From: an uncultured Gammaproteobacteria bacterium
GTDB taxonomy: Bacteria; Patescibacteriota; Microgenomatia; Levybacterales; UBA12049
Reading direction: 5' to 3'
Length of the DNA stretch: 64,000 nucleotides
NCBI GenBank assembly: GCA_964490105.1
Contig: CAZAZU010000001.1
Coordinates: forward strand, 306,361-370,360
Every line of letters starts with the position of its first letter. Positions within the stretch are counted from its first letter, which is position 1. A model generated the notes under the pieces. It was given only the letters and a program-made list of their open reading frames with translations. It did no database searches and was not told where the DNA came from. Positions 56,087-64,000 of this stretch are shown in pieces. A program made the position numbers and the translations under genes.

Positions 56087-57211
56087 TTAACTTTTAAGTC
56101 TTGAGACGACTTCTTTCATGAGTTTTTCCAAACCAATATTATTTTTTACCGAAATAAAAATAGGTGTATACTGCCTATAATCTTCCTCTAACCTAGATAA
56201 GTCTTCTTTTGAAATTTTATCTATTTTATTAAAGACATATATTACCTTAGACTCGTCGATTTTAAGATCATTTAAAATTTCTTCAACTACTTTTAATTTT
56301 TCAAAGCTTTCATGATCTGATGCATCAATCAAATGCAAAATTACATCCGCATGAATGGACTCTAGAAGTGTCGATTTAAAAGCCTGAATAAGACGAGGCG
56401 GTAAATTTCTTATAAAACCAATCGTATCCGTAAATAATACTTTTCGAGAAAGCTCCTTAACATAAACTTCTCCAACCACACTATCAAGGGTCGCAAACAG
56501 AGCGTTTTCTACCAAAACATCTCTTCCTGTGAGCTTATTAAATAAATTACTTTTGCCGGCATTCGTATAACCCACAATTGAAACTGTTTTATAGCCTTCT
56601 TTTTTTCTTCTCTCAATTCTCTTTTCTCGTTCATCGGTTAATTTATCCAGCTGATCATTAACTTTTTTTATCTCATTTCTCCAGTGCCTTTTCATGAGCT
56701 CTGTATTAGTTTCCCCAACTCCAGATGTCCCAATTCCTCCGCCCTGGCGAGACATCACAAATCCCATTCCATAAATTCGAGGACCCATATATCGCATACG
56801 AGCCAGTTCAATCTGAAGCTTCGCTTCTTTGGTTACAGCATGTTTATCAAAAATGTGAAGTATGAGATCCACTCGATCAAATACCTCAATGTTAGGATTT
56901 ACTTTCTGAAGTGCAGATTTAAGGTTAAAAACTTGCTTGGGTTTAGCAGTTTTATTTAAAACGACTACGTCAATATTTTTCTCTTTTACAATTTCAGCGA
57001 TCTCCTGTACTTTACCTTTCCCGACAAATGTAGCCATGTCTGGATTATTTAACTTCTGAATTACCCGATCGATTATTTTTCCACCTAATGTGTCGATCAA
57101 TGATTCGAGCTCTTCACCAGAATCGATTGATCTTTCTTTATTTGCTCTAGGATTTATGACGTGAATAGGTAAAAATCTAAGAAGCAGATTATTTTCTTTC
57201 ATGCCCCTCAT
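56087..57211 (-). CDS. hflX: GTPase HflX
   Basis: G1 GYTNAGKS, G3 DTIGF and G4 NKID, plus the HflX N-domain. Confidence 0.8.
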   Translation of the reverse strand: MRGMKENNLLLRFLPIHVINPRANKERSIDSGEELESLIDTLGGKIIDRVIQKLNNPDMATFVGKGKVQEIAEIVKEKNIDVVVLNKTAKPKQVFNLKSALQKVNPNIEVFDRVDLILHIFDKHAVTKEAKLQIELARMRYMGPRIYGMGFVMSRQGGGIGTSGVGETNTELMKRHWRNEIKKVNDQLDKLTDEREKRIERRKKEGYKTVSIVGYTNAGKSNLFNKLTGRDVLVENALFATLDSVVGEVYVKELSRKVLFTDTIGFIRNLPPRLIQAFKSTLLESIHADVILHLIDASDHESFEKLKVVEEILNDLKIDESKVIYVFNKIDKISKEDLSRLEEDYRQYTPIFISVKNNIGLEKLMKEVVSRLKS

Positions 57212-57243: not shown

Positions 57244-57282
57244 CTAATTCTTCTGCCTAAGAAATGCTGGTATGTCCCAAAC
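57244..57282 (-). repeat. att-like direct repeat: displaced 3-prime fragment of ftsZ (12 codons plus stop), 40 bp upstream of hflX
   Basis: The minus strand reads gtt tgg gac ata cca gca ttt ctt agg cag aag aat tag, which is [12 protein letters not shown]. The identical 14-bp core is agaaatgctggtat. Confidence 0.65.
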
Positions 57283-57360
57283 AGCTTTAATTTTTAGCTT
57301 CATTTCTTACTAAAAACACCTAAGAAGAATGTATAACTTTTATGAAATGGAGTCAAGCGA

Positions 57361-57858
57361 TTACTTTACAGTTCTAGTTTCAGAATTCGGTAGGGTAATT
57401 GACCAATATATAACTTGTGACCAAGAGTTAAGATTTTTACTTTTTAAATTTAAATACCAGGTTCCTGCTTTAACATGATTAAATCTAGAAACGGTTTTAT
57501 ATGTGTCTACTAATGGTCCTGGATTGGAGCCTGGATATTTAGAGATTGAAACGCTATATCCAAGGCTATCCTGTATGTTTTCCCAGTCAAATTTAATACT
57601 GTATTCATTTTTCTGACTATTATAATCATTAGTAATTGTAGCACTAACTGGTATTGGCGATGGGGTAGGAGTCGCTATATAACGCATTACTGGAAGTTGA
57701 ACAGGAGCACTCCCGCCATTGTGATAATGATATGTACCAGCACATGCACCTACATTACAATTATGTCCTCCCGATGAATCTGTTCTACCAGAATGTGCGT
57801 AAACACCAGAAACAGATACGAGCAAGAGAATATATACCATCACTAATGTTTTTTTCAT
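57361..57858 (-). CDS. Secreted YHYH-motif protein (putative metal-binding; compare Pfam YHYH protein family)
   Basis: Signal peptide, then AHSGRTDSSGGHNCNVGACAGTYHYHNGG. Confidence 0.45.
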   Translation of the reverse strand: MKKTLVMVYILLLVSVSGVYAHSGRTDSSGGHNCNVGACAGTYHYHNGGSAPVQLPVMRYIATPTPSPIPVSATITNDYNSQKNEYSIKFDWENIQDSLGYSVSISKYPGSNPGPLVDTYKTVSRFNHVKAGTWYLNLKSKNLNSWSQVIYWSITLPNSETRTVK

Positions 57859-58022: not shown

Positions 58023-58337
58023 TTAGTAAGGTTCCGACACACTCTCTATCTCTTCAAGACTTTCAAGAGCATATCCCATATCATCGTAAGGTTCCCAGGC
58101 GTATGATTTTGCAGAATTTATCGTATAATTAGCTTCTTCAATATTGCTATTTGCCTCTTCTAAGGCATTTTGAAGTTCTTCTGTTCTTCCAGTCTCCTCA
58201 TCGTAGGCATTAAACCACTCTTCTGAAGTTCGACCTTCATATTTTCCAGATCCCTCGAAAATAAAATAAACAATTAATGCTCCGATTACAATGCCACTTA
58301 CTGTACCGATCCAGCCGCCTTTATTTTCTTCTTCCAT
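58023..58337 (-). CDS. Small single-TM acidic protein
   Basis: 104 aa with one TM helix (WIGTVSGIVIGALIVYFIF) and an acidic C-terminus. Confidence 0.3.
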   Translation of the reverse strand: MEEENKGGWIGTVSGIVIGALIVYFIFEGSGKYEGRTSEEWFNAYDEETGRTEELQNALEEANSNIEEANYTINSAKSYAWEPYDDMGYALESLEEIESVSEPY

Positions 58338-58394: not shown

Positions 58395-59090
58395 TTGGAG
58401 AGAACCTGCTATCATATTACTGTGGAAAGTCCTTATAGTGTATATAAATGGTTTACTCCACGCTTTGCATTAAACTACTTTGCACGTTTAGCTGTCGAAA
58501 AAGGTGAGCAAGCATATAAGGACAATAAATATAAAAAGGCAAGAGAAGCATGGATCTTGGGATTAGCATTACTGGGAATAAACAAACTTACAAATTTACA
58601 ATGGTGGCTTCAAGTTCCCAAAGACGACCCACCGGATATGCGAGCAATGACACTTGTATCAAATGAGCAAAAGAACCAAAATGAGATGAATCATCGTGAA
58701 ATAGAAATTACTCAGATTACAAAATATTCAAAAGCAGAGATAGAAGATGAGATATTAAAGAAATTAAAAAATAAATATTACACTAAAGAAACTTGTCTAT
58801 TAGTTTACATAAACAGAAATCAGTATATTAGTGATATGAGAAAAATTGCAAAAAAACTAGAGGGAAAAATAAATATTTCTGACATCTGGATTGTTGCATC
58901 TACATCAGTGGATTCGTCTAAGCATATCCTTTTTTGTCTACATCCACATATTCAAGTTCAAAATTTTGACTTATTCGAAGAAGCAAATAAAATCCCTCCC
59001 GGAGATTTAATTGAATTAAAACCTCTTTCTAAAGGAGTTAAAATGACTTTAGTTAAAAAAGTTCCTATATCTAAATTTATTCCTGAATAA
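58395..59090 (+). CDS. Hypothetical protein (element cargo)
   Basis: 231 aa ORF with no recognised family. Confidence 0.3.
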   Translation: MERTCYHITVESPYSVYKWFTPRFALNYFARLAVEKGEQAYKDNKYKKAREAWILGLALLGINKLTNLQWWLQVPKDDPPDMRAMTLVSNEQKNQNEMNHREIEITQITKYSKAEIEDEILKKLKNKYYTKETCLLVYINRNQYISDMRKIAKKLEGKINISDIWIVASTSVDSSKHILFCLHPHIQVQNFDLFEEANKIPPGDLIELKPLSKGVKMTLVKKVPISKFIPE

Positions 59091-59206: not shown

Positions 59207-59653
59207 TTAATTACAGGGGAAGTTTTTGCTTTCTTTTTCTCCTTCCCACATCTGACATTTTATCTTTCCCGTACACTTATCAACCATATAAAAATTGCTT
59301 GCTGAATTAATGATTCCATTATTATTTGCTAATTTAATTGTCCAAACTTTACTTTTTTCAGGATCTTCATTCCATTCCATACCAACTAAATTAGGATTGC
59401 CCTCCTCTACTTTTCGCATCTCAATGAAGTATTCCTTAACTTCATCCAATTCATTAACAATATCAAGTGCTTGATTAAATGATATATTCTTACAAAAAGG
59501 TGTAGGGGTAACCATATTTTGCTTAACTTCCAAGAAAGGCATAGCAACTTTCCTTTTGCCAGCTTCAAATGAAATGAATATTAGAAAAACTGCTAAGAAC
59601 ATGAGCAACGATCCACCAATTAAATTTTTCATTTTTCTTATAGCACTAAACAA
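59207..59653 (-). CDS. Hypothetical membrane-anchored or secreted protein (element cargo)
   Basis: N-terminal hydrophobic helix LLMFLAVFLIFISF. 148 aa. Confidence 0.3.
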   Translation of the reverse strand: MFSAIRKMKNLIGGSLLMFLAVFLIFISFEAGKRKVAMPFLEVKQNMVTPTPFCKNISFNQALDIVNELDEVKEYFIEMRKVEEGNPNLVGMEWNEDPEKSKVWTIKLANNNGIINSASNFYMVDKCTGKIKCQMWEGEKESKNFPCN

Positions 59654-60330
59654 TCACTATAAATCTTAATATATAGTTTTTGTCCTTCATTTTTAATACC
59701 AGAAGTCATGAGCGAGATTTGATTATTACTATCCTTTGCCCACTGCTTCATTAATTCTCCATCGTACTCAGGTGCAGACTCGGAGGTGTAGCGGCCAGGG
59801 TATTTACTCTTTGCTATTTCAAAAGAGAATAACTCTGGATAATCAATTCTTAATTTATTTTGGGCATTTTGTTCAAATTCTATTTGCTTTGATGATGCCA
59901 AATCCTTACAAAAAGCATCCCAGTTCGCAGGCCTATTGCTTGTAGGAACTACAATTGTATTTGAAGTTTTCGATGGCATATAAACGAATGGCTTAGGCCT
60001 TGGTGATTGAGTTGGACTAGGTGTTGGTGAAGATTGATAAATTGCTTTAGTCGTAGGCTCAGAGATCACTTGCTTATAATTTGTTTCATAATTTATTGAG
60101 GTAGTTATTGTTGGTGTTGGTGTACTTGTAATGTAACTGTCTTCTTTCGTTTCTTGGACAGGAAATTGATAGGTATCTGTTCCCAACACAAGAGCTTGCG
60201 ATCTTCCATACACATATGAAGATCCAAGAATTAAGAAAAATATAATAACTAATAAAGGTTTATTTGTCAGAATAGCGTTTAACTTGCTTGCATGAGCTTT
60301 TTTCCTTACCATGGCTTGTTTATATACCAT
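59638..60330 (-). CDS. Hypothetical membrane-anchored protein with a Pro/Thr/Ser-rich linker (element cargo)
   Basis: N-terminal TM helix, a TPTPTITTS...SPTPSPTQSPRP linker, and a C-terminal globular domain. Confidence 0.3.
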   Translation of the reverse strand: MVYKQAMVRKKAHASKLNAILTNKPLLVIIFFLILGSSYVYGRSQALVLGTDTYQFPVQETKEDSYITSTPTPTITTSINYETNYKQVISEPTTKAIYQSSPTPSPTQSPRPKPFVYMPSKTSNTIVVPTSNRPANWDAFCKDLASSKQIEFEQNAQNKLRIDYPELFSFEIAKSKYPGRYTSESAPEYDGELMKQWAKDSNNQISLMTSGIKNEGQKLYIKIYSDCLVL

Positions 60331-60374: not shown

Positions 60375-60665
60375 ATGACATTAAAACAAAAAGCATTTAT
60401 TAAGAAATATATCGAACACAACGGAAATGCTACCAAAGCTGTTAAGGATATCTATAACGTGAGAAATGATAACTCTGCATCAGTTATAGGATCTAGATTG
60501 TTAAGAAATGTTAAGGTATCAAGGGAAATTGATAGAATAATTGAGGCTGATAAGACTTTCCTTCCCTACATACTTAATGAGTTAAAATATTCGATCGAGA
60601 ATGGATCAGAAGTAAGTAAATACAAAGCTCTCATGTTTGCATTTAAGTTGCATGGCATCAGTTAA
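60375..60665 (+). CDS. Phage terminase small subunit-like protein (Terminase_2/P27-type TerS N-terminal HTH)
   Basis: MTLKQKAFIKKYIEHNGNATKAVKDIYNV...SVIGSRLLRNVKVSREIDRI matches the typical TerS start (LTPKQEAFCxEYxxxxNATQAAIRAGYSxKTA...SRLLRNVKVQERI). Confidence 0.55.
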   Translation: MTLKQKAFIKKYIEHNGNATKAVKDIYNVRNDNSASVIGSRLLRNVKVSREIDRIIEADKTFLPYILNELKYSIENGSEVSKYKALMFAFKLHGIS

Positions 60666-60814
60666 GATCATTCTTCATCTTCTTGATTAACAGTTTTATA
60701 TGATGCTGCAGTGTCAATTAAAAGTAATATTATAAAAATCACCCAGCTAAATGTCCAATCTGTGAACAAAACTATCAGTGAATAAATTATACTCATTGTT
60801 TTTTCTTAAAAAGC

Positions 60815-60832
60815 CTATACCCCCTATACCCC
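60815..60832. repeat. Tandem 9-bp direct repeat ctatacccc x2 in the long non-coding stretch of the element
   Basis: Seen directly. The repeat is C-rich in an AT-rich background. Confidence 0.3.
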
Positions 60833-60930
60833 TGCTTTAGTCTAATTATATTATCTCAATTAACCTTATAAATACACAATAAAATTTTACTACATTAAGC
60901 AAAAAAAACGACCCATGATATAATATAAGT

Positions 60931-61046
60931 ACAATAAAAATAGGGTTCAAAAGCCTGACTTTCGGCTTAGAATCCATAACCGAAGCCGTGTAAACGGTGA
61001 CTCAGGAAGCCTAATCGTTGAAAAATACGAAGAGGCTTCTTTTTTG
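60931..61046 (+). ncRNA. Candidate structured small RNA of about 115 nt, with an extended -10 promoter and an intrinsic terminator
   Basis: TGATATAAT lies at 60916-60924. Hairpins include aagcc/ggctt (60951-60968). The terminator stem gaagcct (61006-61012)/aggcttc (61033-61039) is followed by TTTTTT (61040-61045). The region contains no credible ORF. Confidence 0.3.
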
Positions 61047-61073
61047 TTGGAAAAATTCGGGTACTGATAAAAG

Positions 61074-61110
61074 CTCCTGTTTGGGCCAGTACCCGAGACA
61101 GGAGTTTTTA
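61074..61110 (+). terminator. Rho-independent terminator-like hairpin immediately upstream of the next start codon
   Basis: Stem ctcctgt (61074-61080)/acaggag (61098-61104), a 17-nt loop, then TTTTTATTTT. Confidence 0.4.
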
Positions 61111-61115
61111 TTTTA

Positions 61116-61466
61116 ATGGACCATATAAGCAAAATTTTAAATAAAAAGACAAATATTAACGATATTAACGTTAATAATAAGATTTTAAATAACGATACTA
61201 ACGATACTTCTAGTAAATATTCGTTAAAAGATACTTTTATTCCTAATACTCCTAAAACACAATTGGCTCAGGAAATAGCATCGTTTTTAAATGATACTGA
61301 CAACTATGCATGTTTTTTGGATATTGTAAACAAGATTGGCGTTGATAACGCAAAACGATTACTGAAAGTCGTTAAAGAAGACATTAAAGATAAAGAATCC
61401 ACAAGCACACCTGTAAGAATCCCTGCAAAGTATTTCGTATGGAAATATAGAAAGGGATTGTATTGA
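61116..61466 (+). CDS. Hypothetical protein (element cargo, Asn-rich N-terminus)
   Basis: 116 aa ORF located upstream of the RHH gene and the integrase. Confidence 0.3.
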   Translation: MDHISKILNKKTNINDINVNNKILNNDTNDTSSKYSLKDTFIPNTPKTQLAQEIASFLNDTDNYACFLDIVNKIGVDNAKRLLKVVKEDIKDKESTSTPVRIPAKYFVWKYRKGLY

Positions 61467-61467
61467 G

Positions 61468-61632
61468 ATGAAAAATCGACAAGTCGACAAAAAGTTAACA
61501 ATGCAAGTACGTATAGATTCTGAGTTACATAGAAGGATCAAAATTAAAGCATCGACGCTTTCTGTAAGTGTTAAAACGCTCCTAGAGGGGTTAATTATTG
61601 AAGACCTAAAAGAAGAAACGTCTCAAAATTAA
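61468..61632 (+). CDS. Ribbon-helix-helix (Arc/CopG/MetJ-like) small DNA-binding protein. Candidate element regulator or excisionase.
   Basis: My own translation gives a 54 aa ORF: MKNRQVDKKLTMQVRIDSELHRRIKIKASTLSVSVKTLLEGLIIEDLKEETSQN. The pattern of a beta-strand (MQVRID) followed by two helices is typical of RHH proteins. It is shorter than the ORF-track cutoff. Confidence 0.4.
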   Translation: MKNRQVDKKLTMQVRIDSELHRRIKIKASTLSVSVKTLLEGLIIEDLKEETSQN

Positions 61633-61650
61633 TACTTGCAATATATTTAA

Positions 61651-62739
61651 TTGAAAACTAATATGGAAACAGGTTTCTTACATCCTCAAATACTCTCAAG
61701 TCGCTTCCAGAAAGGAAGCATTTCTCTGTTACAAGAAGAATTTGTCAAATATCTTACAATTAAAGGATTATCTGCCAAATCTATAAAAACATATTCAGCT
61801 AGATTTCGAATATTTAATCAATGGCTAATTGACAGAAATTTTACATTAAATCGAACCTCAATTGAAGAATTCTTGTTTGAAAAAAAGAAAGCTGGATATT
61901 CAAATTCTGGTATAAATAGCTACATTCAATCGTTAAATTATTTACAAAAATATTTCAAATCACATGGTAGCGAGATACTCTTCATGGTAGATATTGAAAC
62001 TCTCCCAAAGGAAAAATCAAAAGTAATTGCACTATCATTATCAGAATCATATAAGCTAATAGACACACCTTTAGTATATAAAAATAGGAATGGGGTGGAT
62101 TGCAATAAGTTAGATTTAACTTATTTGACACTTACAGAATTTATTTTATTTACAGGTTGCAGATATCACGAAGCTTCATCCTTGAAAATTTCCCAATTAG
62201 ACATTGATGAAGGAACGTCATTCTTAACAGATACAAAAACTAAAGAACCCAGATATTTATTGTTTGATGGCATAGTTAAAGAACACCTTAGACAACTCAC
62301 AAAAAATAAATCAATAGATGATCTTGTGTTCACTAATAGCAAAGGGAATGAGATTCATTCTGGAGACTTTTGGTCTAATCTTAAAAAAAGAGCAAAGAAA
62401 GCAGGTATAACCAAGAAAGTTCATCCTCACATTTTAAGACACACTTATGCAACGCTTTATTACAAAAAAACCCACGATATTTCAATGGTTGCTAGATTAT
62501 TAGGTCATAAGGACTTCAAAACTACACATGATACATATGTCCACACAGATTTTGAAGAAATACAACTAGCAAGCAGACAACATCCACTTCTTTCTCGCTA
62601 TACATCTACAAATGAGGTTTTACAAGATTATAAAAATTCTTTTGAAAAGATTTATACTAAGGAGGATGATAGATTTGAATATATTCCAAGTCTTAGTGAC
62701 AATGAATTAATAATTAAAGTTAAATTAAAAGGGGCATAG
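61651..62739 (+). CDS. int: Tyrosine-type site-specific recombinase/integrase
   Basis: C-terminal catalytic region HPHILRHTYATLYY...LLGHKDFKTTHDTYVHTD (R...HxxR...H...Y). The N-terminus has a SAM-like core-binding domain. Confidence 0.85.
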   Translation: MKTNMETGFLHPQILSSRFQKGSISLLQEEFVKYLTIKGLSAKSIKTYSARFRIFNQWLIDRNFTLNRTSIEEFLFEKKKAGYSNSGINSYIQSLNYLQKYFKSHGSEILFMVDIETLPKEKSKVIALSLSESYKLIDTPLVYKNRNGVDCNKLDLTYLTLTEFILFTGCRYHEASSLKISQLDIDEGTSFLTDTKTKEPRYLLFDGIVKEHLRQLTKNKSIDDLVFTNSKGNEIHSGDFWSNLKKRAKKAGITKKVHPHILRHTYATLYYKKTHDISMVARLLGHKDFKTTHDTYVHTDFEEIQLASRQHPLLSRYTSTNEVLQDYKNSFEKIYTKEDDRFEYIPSLSDNELIIKVKLKGA

Positions 62740-62841: not shown

Positions 62842-62880
62842 TTAATTTTTCTGTCTTAGAAATGCTGGTATATCCCAGAC
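62842..62880 (-). repeat. att-like direct repeat forming the current 3-prime end of ftsZ (12 codons plus TAA)
   Basis: The minus strand reads gtc tgg gat ata cca gca ttt cta aga cag aaa aat taa, which is [12 protein letters not shown]. Confidence 0.65.
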
Positions 62881-64000
62881 CTCCTCGTCGTTTTCTGGGA
62901 CTGGGGTTTGGGGATTTGAAGGTTGATTCCCTGTATTTTGATCCTGCTGATTTTGATCCATTGGCTGCTGTTGATTATTATTAATCGTATTTGACTGAGG
63001 AGTTACGTTATAATTTTGCTGAATAGGGGGAGCTACAAATTCTCTTAAAGTTTGCCTTGCACTATCAAAACCTGTTGCAATAACGGTAATTTTCATCTGA
63101 TCTCTCATGGTCTCATCGATTGTCGCACCAAAAATGATATTTGCGTCACTATCTGCAGCTTGGGCAATAATTTTAGCTGCCTCATCAACTTCATTCATTG
63201 TTAGGTCTGGACCTCCGATTACATTAAAGAGTACTCCGCGAGCGCCTTCCATGGTAATTTCTAAAAGAGGAGAAGCGATAGCGGACCTGGCTGCAGCTTG
63301 GGCTCTATTCTCTCCAACTCCAGTTCCAATACCCATAAGAGAGGAGCCTGCATTTTGCATAATAGTTCTTACATCTGCAAAGTCGACATTGATAAGTCCC
63401 GGCATAGTGATGAGGTCTGAGATTCCCTGCACGCCTTGAGTAAGAACTGAATCTGCTACTTTAAAAGCTTCAAGAAGAGAAAGTTTCTTATCTACTACGT
63501 CTAGTATTCTCTGGTTGGGAATGACAATAAGAGTATCAACTTTATCTTTAAGAAGTTCTATTCCCTCTTCAGCTGCTACCATTCTTCGGGTTCCTTCAAA
63601 AGTAAAAGGCTTTGTAACGACTGCTACAGTTAGCGCGCCTACTTCCTTAGCTGCTCTAGCAATAACAGGTGTTGCGCCGGTTCCAGTTCCTCCACCCATT
63701 CCAGCTGTAAGAAAAACCATGTCAGTACCATCTAAAATATCTTTTAATTTTTCATAAGATTCCTCTGCTGCATTTGCTCCTACCTCAGGATTTCCGCCAG
63801 ACCCCAAACCCTTGGTGAAATCTTCACCGATTTGAACTTTTGTGGCCGCTTGATTGAGAAGAAGACTCTGAGCATCGGTGTTAACAGCTATAAAATCTAC
63901 TCCTTGGATTGAGGATTGGGAGATCATGGAATTAAGAGCATTACTACCTCCGCCTCCAATTCCCATGACACGAATCTTAGCGAAATTTGTTGTTTGAGGC
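62842..64000 (-). CDS. ftsZ: Cell division protein FtsZ. The N-terminus lies beyond the window end.
   Basis: [14 protein letters not shown] and the tubulin signature [10 protein letters not shown]. The C-terminal conserved peptide is [10 protein letters not shown]. The reading frame stays open to the window edge. Confidence 0.85.

Follow-up and report, generated by a model that had tools for sequence, protein, structure and literature searches.

The 64-kb window (the whole stretch of DNA analysed here, from contig CAZAZU010000001.1 of assembly GCA_964490105.1) carries, enclosed by hflX (56087..57211, minus strand) and ftsZ (62842..63966, minus strand), a compact element of ~5.6 kb. This element encodes a short protein of the terminase small subunit (TerS) family, referred to here as mini-TerS, followed by a structured RNA region and an operon that ends in a tyrosine integrase gene, together with a set of cargo genes. 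It is almost certain that the segment 57245-62880 is a site-specific integrative island seated in the last 12 codons of ftsZ, and that it represents a previously undescribed family of islands marked by mini-TerS. An earlier note on this DNA had likened the gene set of the element to that of a miniature phage satellite.

Integration into the last codons of ftsZ

The GC content of the interval between hflX and ftsZ is 0.29-0.36, against 0.32-0.43 in the flanks, and the element is bounded by a 38-nt direct repeat, at 57245-57282 and 62843-62880, whose copies are identical at 33 of 38 positions and spaced 5598 nt apart. Within the 8 kb examined this pair of attachment sites (att) is the longest direct repeat. 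The claim of the earlier note that a discrete element of ~5.6 kb lies here is borne out by this repeat, which also bounds the relatives of the element in two other loci, L002 and L003. The ends of the island are as follows.

57245..57282: attL, the distal repeat copy and displaced ftsZ 3' end, with its peptide readable on the minus strand
57283..57360: attL-side element arm, 77% identical to L003 over 118 nt including the repeat, and partly kept in L002
62740..62842: attR-side element arm, kept in both L002 and L003
62843..62880: attR, the repeat copy that is the present ftsZ 3' end, sharing with attL the identical core AGAAATGCTGGTAT

Minus-strand translation of attL and of attR gives one and the same 12-residue FtsZ C-terminal peptide followed by a stop codon, and all five nucleotide differences between the copies are therefore synonymous. 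The conserved FtsZ C-terminal peptide, DIPAFLR, tethers FtsZ to its membrane anchors, and the target of the element is among the most conserved short coding sequences in bacteria. The attachment site carried by the element mimics the codons of this peptide, so that integration restores an unchanged FtsZ. The island also brings a new terminator for the gene, as the current ftsZ terminator is a hairpin running from 62816 to 62799 on the minus strand, within the attR-side element arm. No tRNA or tmRNA gene is present in the window, and a tRNA is therefore not the target of the element. Our literature searches turned up no relevant report of integration at the ftsZ end.

The same site is occupied in related genomes. 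In L002, a 565-kb contig with the same dcw-ftsA-ftsZ synteny, an 11.7-kb element lies between the same two ftsZ-3' repeats and carries a mini-TerS (68% identity) and a tyrosine integrase, with a cargo of DNA methyltransferases, an NmeDI-like nuclease (restriction-modification), a trypsin-like protease and a NUDIX protein. L003/L004 has a 5.7-kb element at ftsZ with a mini-TerS, a ribbon-helix-helix (RHH) gene and an intact 363-aa integrase; its host is more distant, with an FtsZ about 65-66% identical, and the same site is used. The inner arms beside attL and attR are conserved across the elements of the window, L002 and L003, and the outer flanks differ. In two sister genomes (HflX 90-92% identical) the island is absent and other content is in its place; the repeat-flanked segment is thus not fixed and syntenic in all relatives, a state that would have refuted an integrative island. 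In one sister genome (GCA_964364105.1; L015:7788-9968) three copies of the ftsZ-3' repeat bound short integrase-less segments with Fic-domain and cupin genes, and one junction retains 52 nt resembling an element arm; these segments look like tandem remnants of earlier insertions. The relatives at the same site and the remnants in the sister genome together make the ftsZ end a recurrently used insertion hotspot, of which the window element is a recent, intact occupant. We note that in L002:11561-13937 the integrase and ftsZ are each broken into several open reading frames (ORFs). This suggests indel or frameshift errors of assembly and not decay, and L002 as such cannot be used to argue for decay of the element.

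A truncated terminase small subunit as family marker

From the mini-TerS gene to the end of the integrase gene, the following features are found.

60375..60665, plus strand: mini-TerS, 96 aa, with a Terminase_2-type helix-turn-helix (HTH) and an alpha4-alpha5 helical hairpin
60668..60796, minus strand: doubtful 42-aa hydrophobic ORF
60816..60833: C-rich motif TATACCCCCTATACCCCT
60916..60924, plus strand: extended -10 promoter element TGATATAAT
60932..61045, plus strand: RNA of ~113 nt, a leader or small RNA, with terminator T1 at its end
61006-61012 / 61033-61039, plus strand: stem of T1, followed by a T-run
61057..61109, plus strand: second regulatory hairpin set
61116..61466, plus strand: p116, with a disordered N-terminus and a confident 4-helix C-terminal domain in its AlphaFold2 (AF2) model
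61468..61632, plus strand: 54-aa probable RHH protein (sub-threshold matches only)
61663..62739, plus strand: Xer-like tyrosine integrase, 358 aa from ATG (alternative TTG at 61651)

By profile hidden Markov model (HMM) and by fold, mini-TerS is a true TerS homologue, but a truncated one. Its match to Pfam Terminase_2 scores 45 bits against a cut-off of 26.1, and phrog_51, annotated as 'terminase small subunit', is matched with E 1e-12; each match covers no more than residues 1 to ~58 of the protein, or positions 1-55 of the 141 in the profile. A profile built from the eight closest mini-TerS homologues matches the PDB sequences of SF6/SPP1-type TerS (4zc3, 3zqp, 2cmp). In the AF2 model (pLDDT 89) three short helices form the HTH; residues 46-76 then make a long helix and residues 79-93 a helix running back, these two with pLDDT of 74-91. 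When this model was compared with the PDB by Foldseek, the four top matches were SF6/SPP1-like TerS, with TM scores of 0.85-0.88 normalised to the DNA-binding-domain structures, and mini-TerS aligned over its full length to 3zqq and to viral TerS models. Among the top 50 Foldseek matches in BFVD many are unnamed, and the named proteins are nearly all terminase small subunits. The earlier note had called the product of 60375-60665 small-terminase-like, a call that stands, as HMM or structural similarity to TerS is found in Pfam, phrog_51, the PDB and BFVD alike. In the SF6/SPP1 class each TerS protomer comprises an HTH (alpha1-3), an alpha4-alpha5 hairpin, a beta-strand of a 9-stranded barrel and a C-terminal tail, and in P22 the tail is required for binding of the large terminase subunit (TerL) (PMC7672466). 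Mini-TerS shares with the SF6/SPP1-type proteins (Terminase_2; PDB 3ZQQ, 2CMP, 4ZC3) the N-terminal HTH, the hairpin and the motif to the end of alpha5, its own C-terminus being the conserved ...LKLxGxx, and differs from them in having neither barrel strand nor tail, nor an adjoining TerL-sized gene.

The short form recurs. The seven closest homologues of mini-TerS are all 94-96 aa long. When HMMER was run exhaustively on 1.84 billion cluster representatives, another ~25 clusters (defined at 50% identity), with lengths of 94-105 aa, came out at the top, above most TerS of ordinary length. Pairwise dN/dS values in the mini-TerS family are 0.05-0.49. Taken together, these sequence comparisons indicate that the short form of TerS is a maintained class under purifying selection, and not a broken gene. 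Where the sequence extends at least 1.5 kb beyond the gene on its downstream side, an ORF of TerL size (at least 350 aa) follows in 0/7 mini-TerS loci, compared with 20/24 full-length relatives, whose sources were genomes, metagenomes and viral contigs. A search of IMG/VR added 80 loci with TerS relatives of 107-296 aa, most of them having an ORF of at least 390 aa directly after; by the measure of ORFs of at least 350 aa, most of 78 viral loci from that search agree with the full-length relatives. Where checked, the ORF following a full-length TerS is TerL (L010: Terminase_3/3C). The nearest homologues outside the mini class are bona fide phage TerS adjoining TerL, with 35% identity over the whole length. 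No protein of the mini-TerS family at 105 aa or less was found in IMG/VR, where one sub-alignment search came back empty and another gave only TerS of at least 107 aa, and deposited phages and plasmids gave only weak N-terminal matches to annotated TerS.

The genomic context of mini-TerS was read in nine loci. The sole gene common to all islands of the family is the 94-105-aa mini-TerS, and the family layout is mini-TerS, then a switch region, then an operon ending in a tyrosine or serine integrase, with variable cargo. This recurrence of TerS, switch region and integrase in related islands means that the arrangement is not a random remnant. In L007 a 95-aa mini-TerS is paired with a large serine recombinase. 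In L007, L008 and L020 the gene that comes after mini-TerS lies on the other strand and encodes a cI/Cro-type HTH_3 repressor, and in L007 this is succeeded by a rightward operon. In L007:3352-4338 and L008:1920-2909, after the repressor and Cro-like genes, lies a conserved ~328-aa protein (34% identity) with no Pfam or PHROG match, a candidate replication protein of that branch of the family. As to their database labels, one distant family member is assigned to Patescibacteria and two others to 'uncultured Gammaproteobacteria' metagenome-assembled genomes. The host of the window is assigned only indirectly, by the first of these labels together with a GC content of ~35% and a largest contig of 785 kb.

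Two further loci carry somewhat longer TerS relatives. In L019:1800-5704 a 143-aa relative shows the layout of the mini-TerS islands, with a SwaI-type restriction-modification system upstream and an opposite-strand HTH_3 repressor downstream, with no TerL, and this locus may be an intermediate between islands with full-length and with mini TerS. L048 is a whole contig of 9675 nt with a 100-nt terminal direct repeat, in which a 144-aa TerS relative is followed by a 475-aa ORF; it may be circular, perhaps a phage-like or satellite-like replicon of very small size.

The switch region, integrase operon and cargo

A non-coding region of 320 nt separates the p116 gene from the doubtful 42-aa ORF, whose positional analogues in L003 and L005 are membrane-anchored proteins of 125-128 aa. 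Four loci have, 3' of mini-TerS, the C-rich motif, a TTTTAAATAC box and the extended -10 element. The C-rich motif is shared among the four as CCCCC-N-CCCC(C), conspicuous in DNA of ~31% GC, and the promoter element is kept in related loci including L003 and L002. The segment 60930-61115 (186 nt) folds far beyond shuffled controls (z = -7.15). A structured RNA bounded by promoter and terminator, as claimed in the earlier note, is thus supported by the folding score and by promoter conservation. T1 is near-identical in L003, where the aligned 3' arm differs. In the second hairpin set, stem A (10 bp, 61057-61066 / 61087-61096) shows four pair differences from L003, all of them compensatory, and is overlapped by a second terminator hairpin, T2 (61074-61080 / 61098-61104 plus T-run), which occludes the AGGAG ribosome-binding site of p116. 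These features suggest a terminator/antiterminator switch acting on the p116-RHH-integrase operon. The covariation support for stem A comes from two sequences, the window and L003, since the upstream regions of the p116-bearing loci L066 and L067 are not homologous. The best sigma-70-like site of the region, TGGACA-17-TATAAT (11/12), lies on the minus strand at 60757 to 60729, within the doubtful 42-aa ORF and facing leftward. RNA started there would cross mini-terS in antisense on its way to the membrane-protein cargo genes, with transcriptional interference as a possible outcome.

Satellite P4, with its CI RNA, and phages P1 and N15, with their C4-type RNAs, use a constitutive promoter, a short structured RNA and terminators to silence a downstream operon. 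The likeness of the window switch to these immunity systems is one of architecture only; the window RNA had no Rfam match at gathering score in a scan of the whole window, and only chance-level matches at E up to 10 in 60600-61200, and its structure is supported by two sequences.

The p116 protein gave no significant match by PDB-sequence profile search, by hhalign to its positional analogue or by AF2 and Foldseek. In L066:61-2262 homologues of p116 and of the RHH protein lie directly upstream of a large serine recombinase of ~500 aa, and the pair is therefore a portable module independent of recombinase type. The first ORFs after the switch region in the window (61116-61466), L003 (3828-4154) and L002 (10700-11245) have no detectable mutual homology, and share a basic C-terminal tail with an R-(x)-P-x-x-Y-F ... 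K/R-rich motif. The earlier note had placed a 54-aa RHH protein upstream of the integrase; the gene is there, and its RHH identity is probable, resting below threshold at RHH_10 (22 bits, cut-off 27), HicB (20.9, cut-off 21) and a PHROG Arc-like family (E 5e-3), with no PDB sequence match. The tyrosine integrase claimed in that note is well supported, with 99 bits to Phage_integrase, 23.6 bits to Phage_int_SAM_1 (cut-off 22.3) and 149 bits to XerA-like proteins, under the equivalog cut-off. When it is aligned to XerH (5jjv) and XerD, none of the catalytic residues (R, K, HxxR, H and Y) is missing, so the inactivated integrase that the note had named as a weakness of the satellite idea is not what the element carries. 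An exact-protein look-up with both starts found nothing on record for the integrase.

The remaining genes of the island are cargo.

57361..57858, minus strand: secreted YHYH-domain protein, 165 aa, with a signal-peptide-like N-terminus
58023..58337, minus strand: 104 aa, no family; a single membrane segment at the N-terminus, the tail acidic and coiled-coil-like
58395..59090, plus strand: cytoplasmic protein, no function assigned
59207..59653, minus strand: 148-aa membrane-anchored protein, no family
59638..60330, minus strand: 230-aa membrane-anchored protein with a Ser/Thr/Pro-rich linker

Four secreted or membrane cargo proteins had been claimed, the YHYH protein among them, and both points agree with our data: the YHYH domain matches NF033223 at 36.7 bits (cut-off 30), and N-terminal hydrophobic segments are seen in four cargo proteins. 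That this cargo could modify the cell surface is a conjecture of the earlier note. The C-terminal domain of the 59638..60330 protein reappears beside mini-TerS in L017. The database form of the 58395..59090 protein is 222 aa long, and the difference in length places its start near 58422; it has 16 homologues (48-63% identity) on other small-genome contigs. One homologue, 62% identical, lies just 3' of ftsZ in L170:5070-7528 with no integrase and no repeat, consistent with cargo left behind or exchanged at the ftsZ hotspot.

Nine ORFs of at least 54 aa in the island were scanned against Pfam, PHROG and NCBIfam. None matched a capsid, portal, TerL, tail or lysis family, in agreement with the absence of such genes noted earlier and with an integrative element that is not a prophage. 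A relaxase family was not matched in these ORFs either, and no recognisable excisionase-type gene and no pseudogenised structural gene was found in the island by Pfam and PHROG. PADLOC, run on all nine proteins, returned only weak AbiA C-terminal matches to mini-TerS (E 4.5e-4, 16.9 bits), and a reading of mini-TerS as AbiA was dismissed as not meaningful at these values.

Phage satellites and alternative explanations

Our best guess, held tentatively and at somewhat less than even odds, is that the element is a minimalist phage satellite island resembling the phage-inducible chromosomal islands (PICIs), the PICMIs (for phage-inducible chromosomal minimalist islands) or the tycheposons. Selection that keeps a TerS derivative in islands of this kind is best explained by phage-dependent transfer. 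In the resting state, a constitutive promoter at ~60916 would yield a short structured leader RNA, and transcription would halt at T1 and T2, leaving p116, the RHH protein and the integrase off. Infection by, or induction of, a helper phage would then lift termination or RHH repression, and the island would excise. Mini-TerS could oligomerise through its hairpin and bind island DNA, for which the C-rich motif just 3' of its gene is a candidate site, and would hand this DNA, probably as concatemers as in PICMI, to the large terminase of the helper for headful packaging. Through its cargo, which is membrane and secreted proteins in the window and restriction-modification in relatives, the island may repay the host for carriage.

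Known satellites offer partial precedents. In PICIs it is TerS that redirects packaging (PMC10085698). Like PICIs, to which the pathogenicity islands of Staphylococcus aureus (SaPIs) belong, the window island is small and integrase-bearing, has no structural or lysis genes, encodes its own TerS and carries cargo beside terS (PMC10085698). It differs in having no detectable primase-replicase, capsid-morphogenesis gene or alpA/merR/stl regulator, the place of the last being taken by the probable RHH protein and the RNA leader; in addition its TerS is truncated, its integrase stands at the end of the regulated operon and not divergent from it, and it measures 5.6 kb against a PICI median of 9.5 kb (PMC10085698). 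Proteobacteria and Firmicutes account for more than 99.9% of the PICIs detected (PMC10085698). PICMI of the Vibrionaceae, a satellite of 6.1 kb that occupies the 3' end of fis and whose DNA is packaged in concatemeric form (PMC10803314), resembles the window island in its size of ~6 kb, its position at the 3' end of a housekeeping gene (fis versus ftsZ) and its want of capsid-remodelling genes. PICMI has no terS, however, and has three core excision and replication proteins (PMC10803314) whose homologous functions were not detected in the window island; the integrase is the sole shared component, and the window host has a genome of ~35% GC and ftsZ as target. PICMIs are also experimentally verified, whereas the window island is known from its sequence.

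The third precedent comes from tycheposons and from marine virion-encapsidated integrative mobile elements (VEIMEs). Both integrate into the genomes of bacteria that are streamlined and uncultivated, have a recombinase of the tyrosine or serine type and many genes without known function, and in some cases encode TerS homologues (10.1101/2020.12.28.424599; PMC9618062). Those tycheposons of streamlined genomes that are PICI-like have TerS or a capsid gene, and are reported without extra cargo, unlike the window island (10.1101/2020.12.28.424599). VEIMEs are defined by their physical presence in virions (PMC9618062), and the island by its genes. These groups are set apart from the island here by description; the sequence comparison made is that the integrase has no close relatives in IMG/VR.

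The case for a satellite is circumstantial, and most of the features that define membership of the PICIs or PICMIs are absent. Several observations weigh against it. Mini-TerS ends directly after alpha5 at residue 96, without the beta-barrel strand and C-terminal tail. The nine scanned ORFs contain no detectable primase, replicase or Rep, though an analogue could be hidden among the proteins without an assigned function, such as p116; nor do they contain an alpA-, merR- or stl-type regulator. With ORFs from 85 phage loci as queries, no TerL or other phage homologue besides TerS was found in the 64-kb window, the matches being to the TerS gene and to three unrelated spots elsewhere. No direct sign of excision, replication, a helper phage or packaging was found, and when loci of up to 13 kb were tested for the terminal repeats of a circular, excised contig, no mini-TerS locus had them. 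A palindromic DNA operator that co-evolves with the RHH protein could account for the stem A covariation equally well. IMG/VR has no close relative of mini-TerS, the integrase or the RNA (the integrase and the exact 29-nt T1 were scanned); this absence is weak evidence, because IMG/VR selection relies on viral hallmark genes. Of the satellite proposed in the earlier note, the discrete element, the TerS homology and the intact integrase therefore stand, set against a truncated TerS, no PICI replication function and no helper or packaged form found. Viral collections gave no copy of the element in IMG/VR and no mini-TerS there or in deposited phages. The view of the note that a satellite of this size would be undescribed is weakened, since PICMI, at 6.1 kb and likewise seated in the 3' end of a housekeeping gene, is already described (PMC10803314); the word 'undescribed' is thereby limited to the host lineage and the gene set.

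A possible, though doubtful, alternative is an ordinary integrative island that moves independently of phages, in which a TerS-derived protein has been exapted as a sequence-specific DNA-binding or architectural factor. It might, for example, set the direction of recombination as a directionality factor, regulate the switch region or serve in a partition-like role, and the island would transfer by natural transformation, vesicles or generalised transduction. This would fit a mini-TerS that keeps just the DNA-binding HTH and the oligomerisation hairpin and always lies beside the regulatory region, in an island with no other recognisable excisionase-type gene and no replication or capsid-related functions in its scans, and it would fit the absence of mini-TerS from viral collections. 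Directionality factors are normally specific to one recombinase, however, and the same mini-TerS accompanies unrelated recombinases of both the tyrosine and the serine type. The nearest homologues outside the mini class are moreover phage TerS adjoining TerL, at 35% identity over the whole length, and we know of no precedent for a Terminase_2 domain acting as a directionality factor.

It is improbable, though conceivable, that the locus is a defence island that is itself not packaged, in which the tail-less mini-TerS acts as a packaging decoy by co-assembling or competing with phage TerS at pac. The loss of barrel and tail with retention of the DNA-binding and hairpin parts (cf. PMC7672466), the restriction-modification systems adjoining mini-TerS in related islands and the behaviour of the ftsZ-hflX interval as a variable hotspot are all in keeping with such a decoy. 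A decoy would need a close match to one phage TerS, whereas the nearest viral TerS is 35% identical; PADLOC gave no significant match to mini-TerS, and linkage to an integrase and a switch is unnecessary for a defence gene. A decaying prophage remnant that retains terS and int by chance, as the co-occurrence of a TerS-family gene with an integrase and the integrase-less segments at the same site in a sister genome might suggest, is very improbable and already largely refuted by a mini-TerS length fixed at 94-105 aa across many diverged clusters under purifying selection, a catalytically intact integrase, a compact architecture repeated with different integrases and cargo, and the lack of pseudogenised structural genes.

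To return to the satellite reading, its broadest form is that mini-TerS islands are widespread, undescribed minimalist satellites of Patescibacteria-like and other uncultivated bacteria, which use a TerS without barrel or tail and a termination switch to divert the packaging motor of a helper, and the codons of the FtsZ peptide as a broad-host attachment site; we regard this as a possible, though doubtful, proposal. Routes of horizontal transfer in the tiny, often episymbiotic cells of Patescibacteria are poorly understood, and our literature searches turned up no phage satellite described in Patescibacteria (Candidate Phyla Radiation). If the islands are satellites, phage parasitism would reach into this lineage. 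Mini-TerS would then be the smallest TerS still able to redirect packaging, which would bear on the question of which parts of TerS recruit TerL. A Terminase_2 protein of 94-105 aa without an adjoining TerL would also provide a one-gene marker of satellites in metagenomes, useful since current tools require primase or capsid genes. Whether or not the island is a satellite, the use of FtsZ C-terminal peptide codons as an integration site is an analogue of tRNA-gene targeting and a new type of attachment site, and it flags the ftsZ-hflX junction as a hotspot of gene flux.

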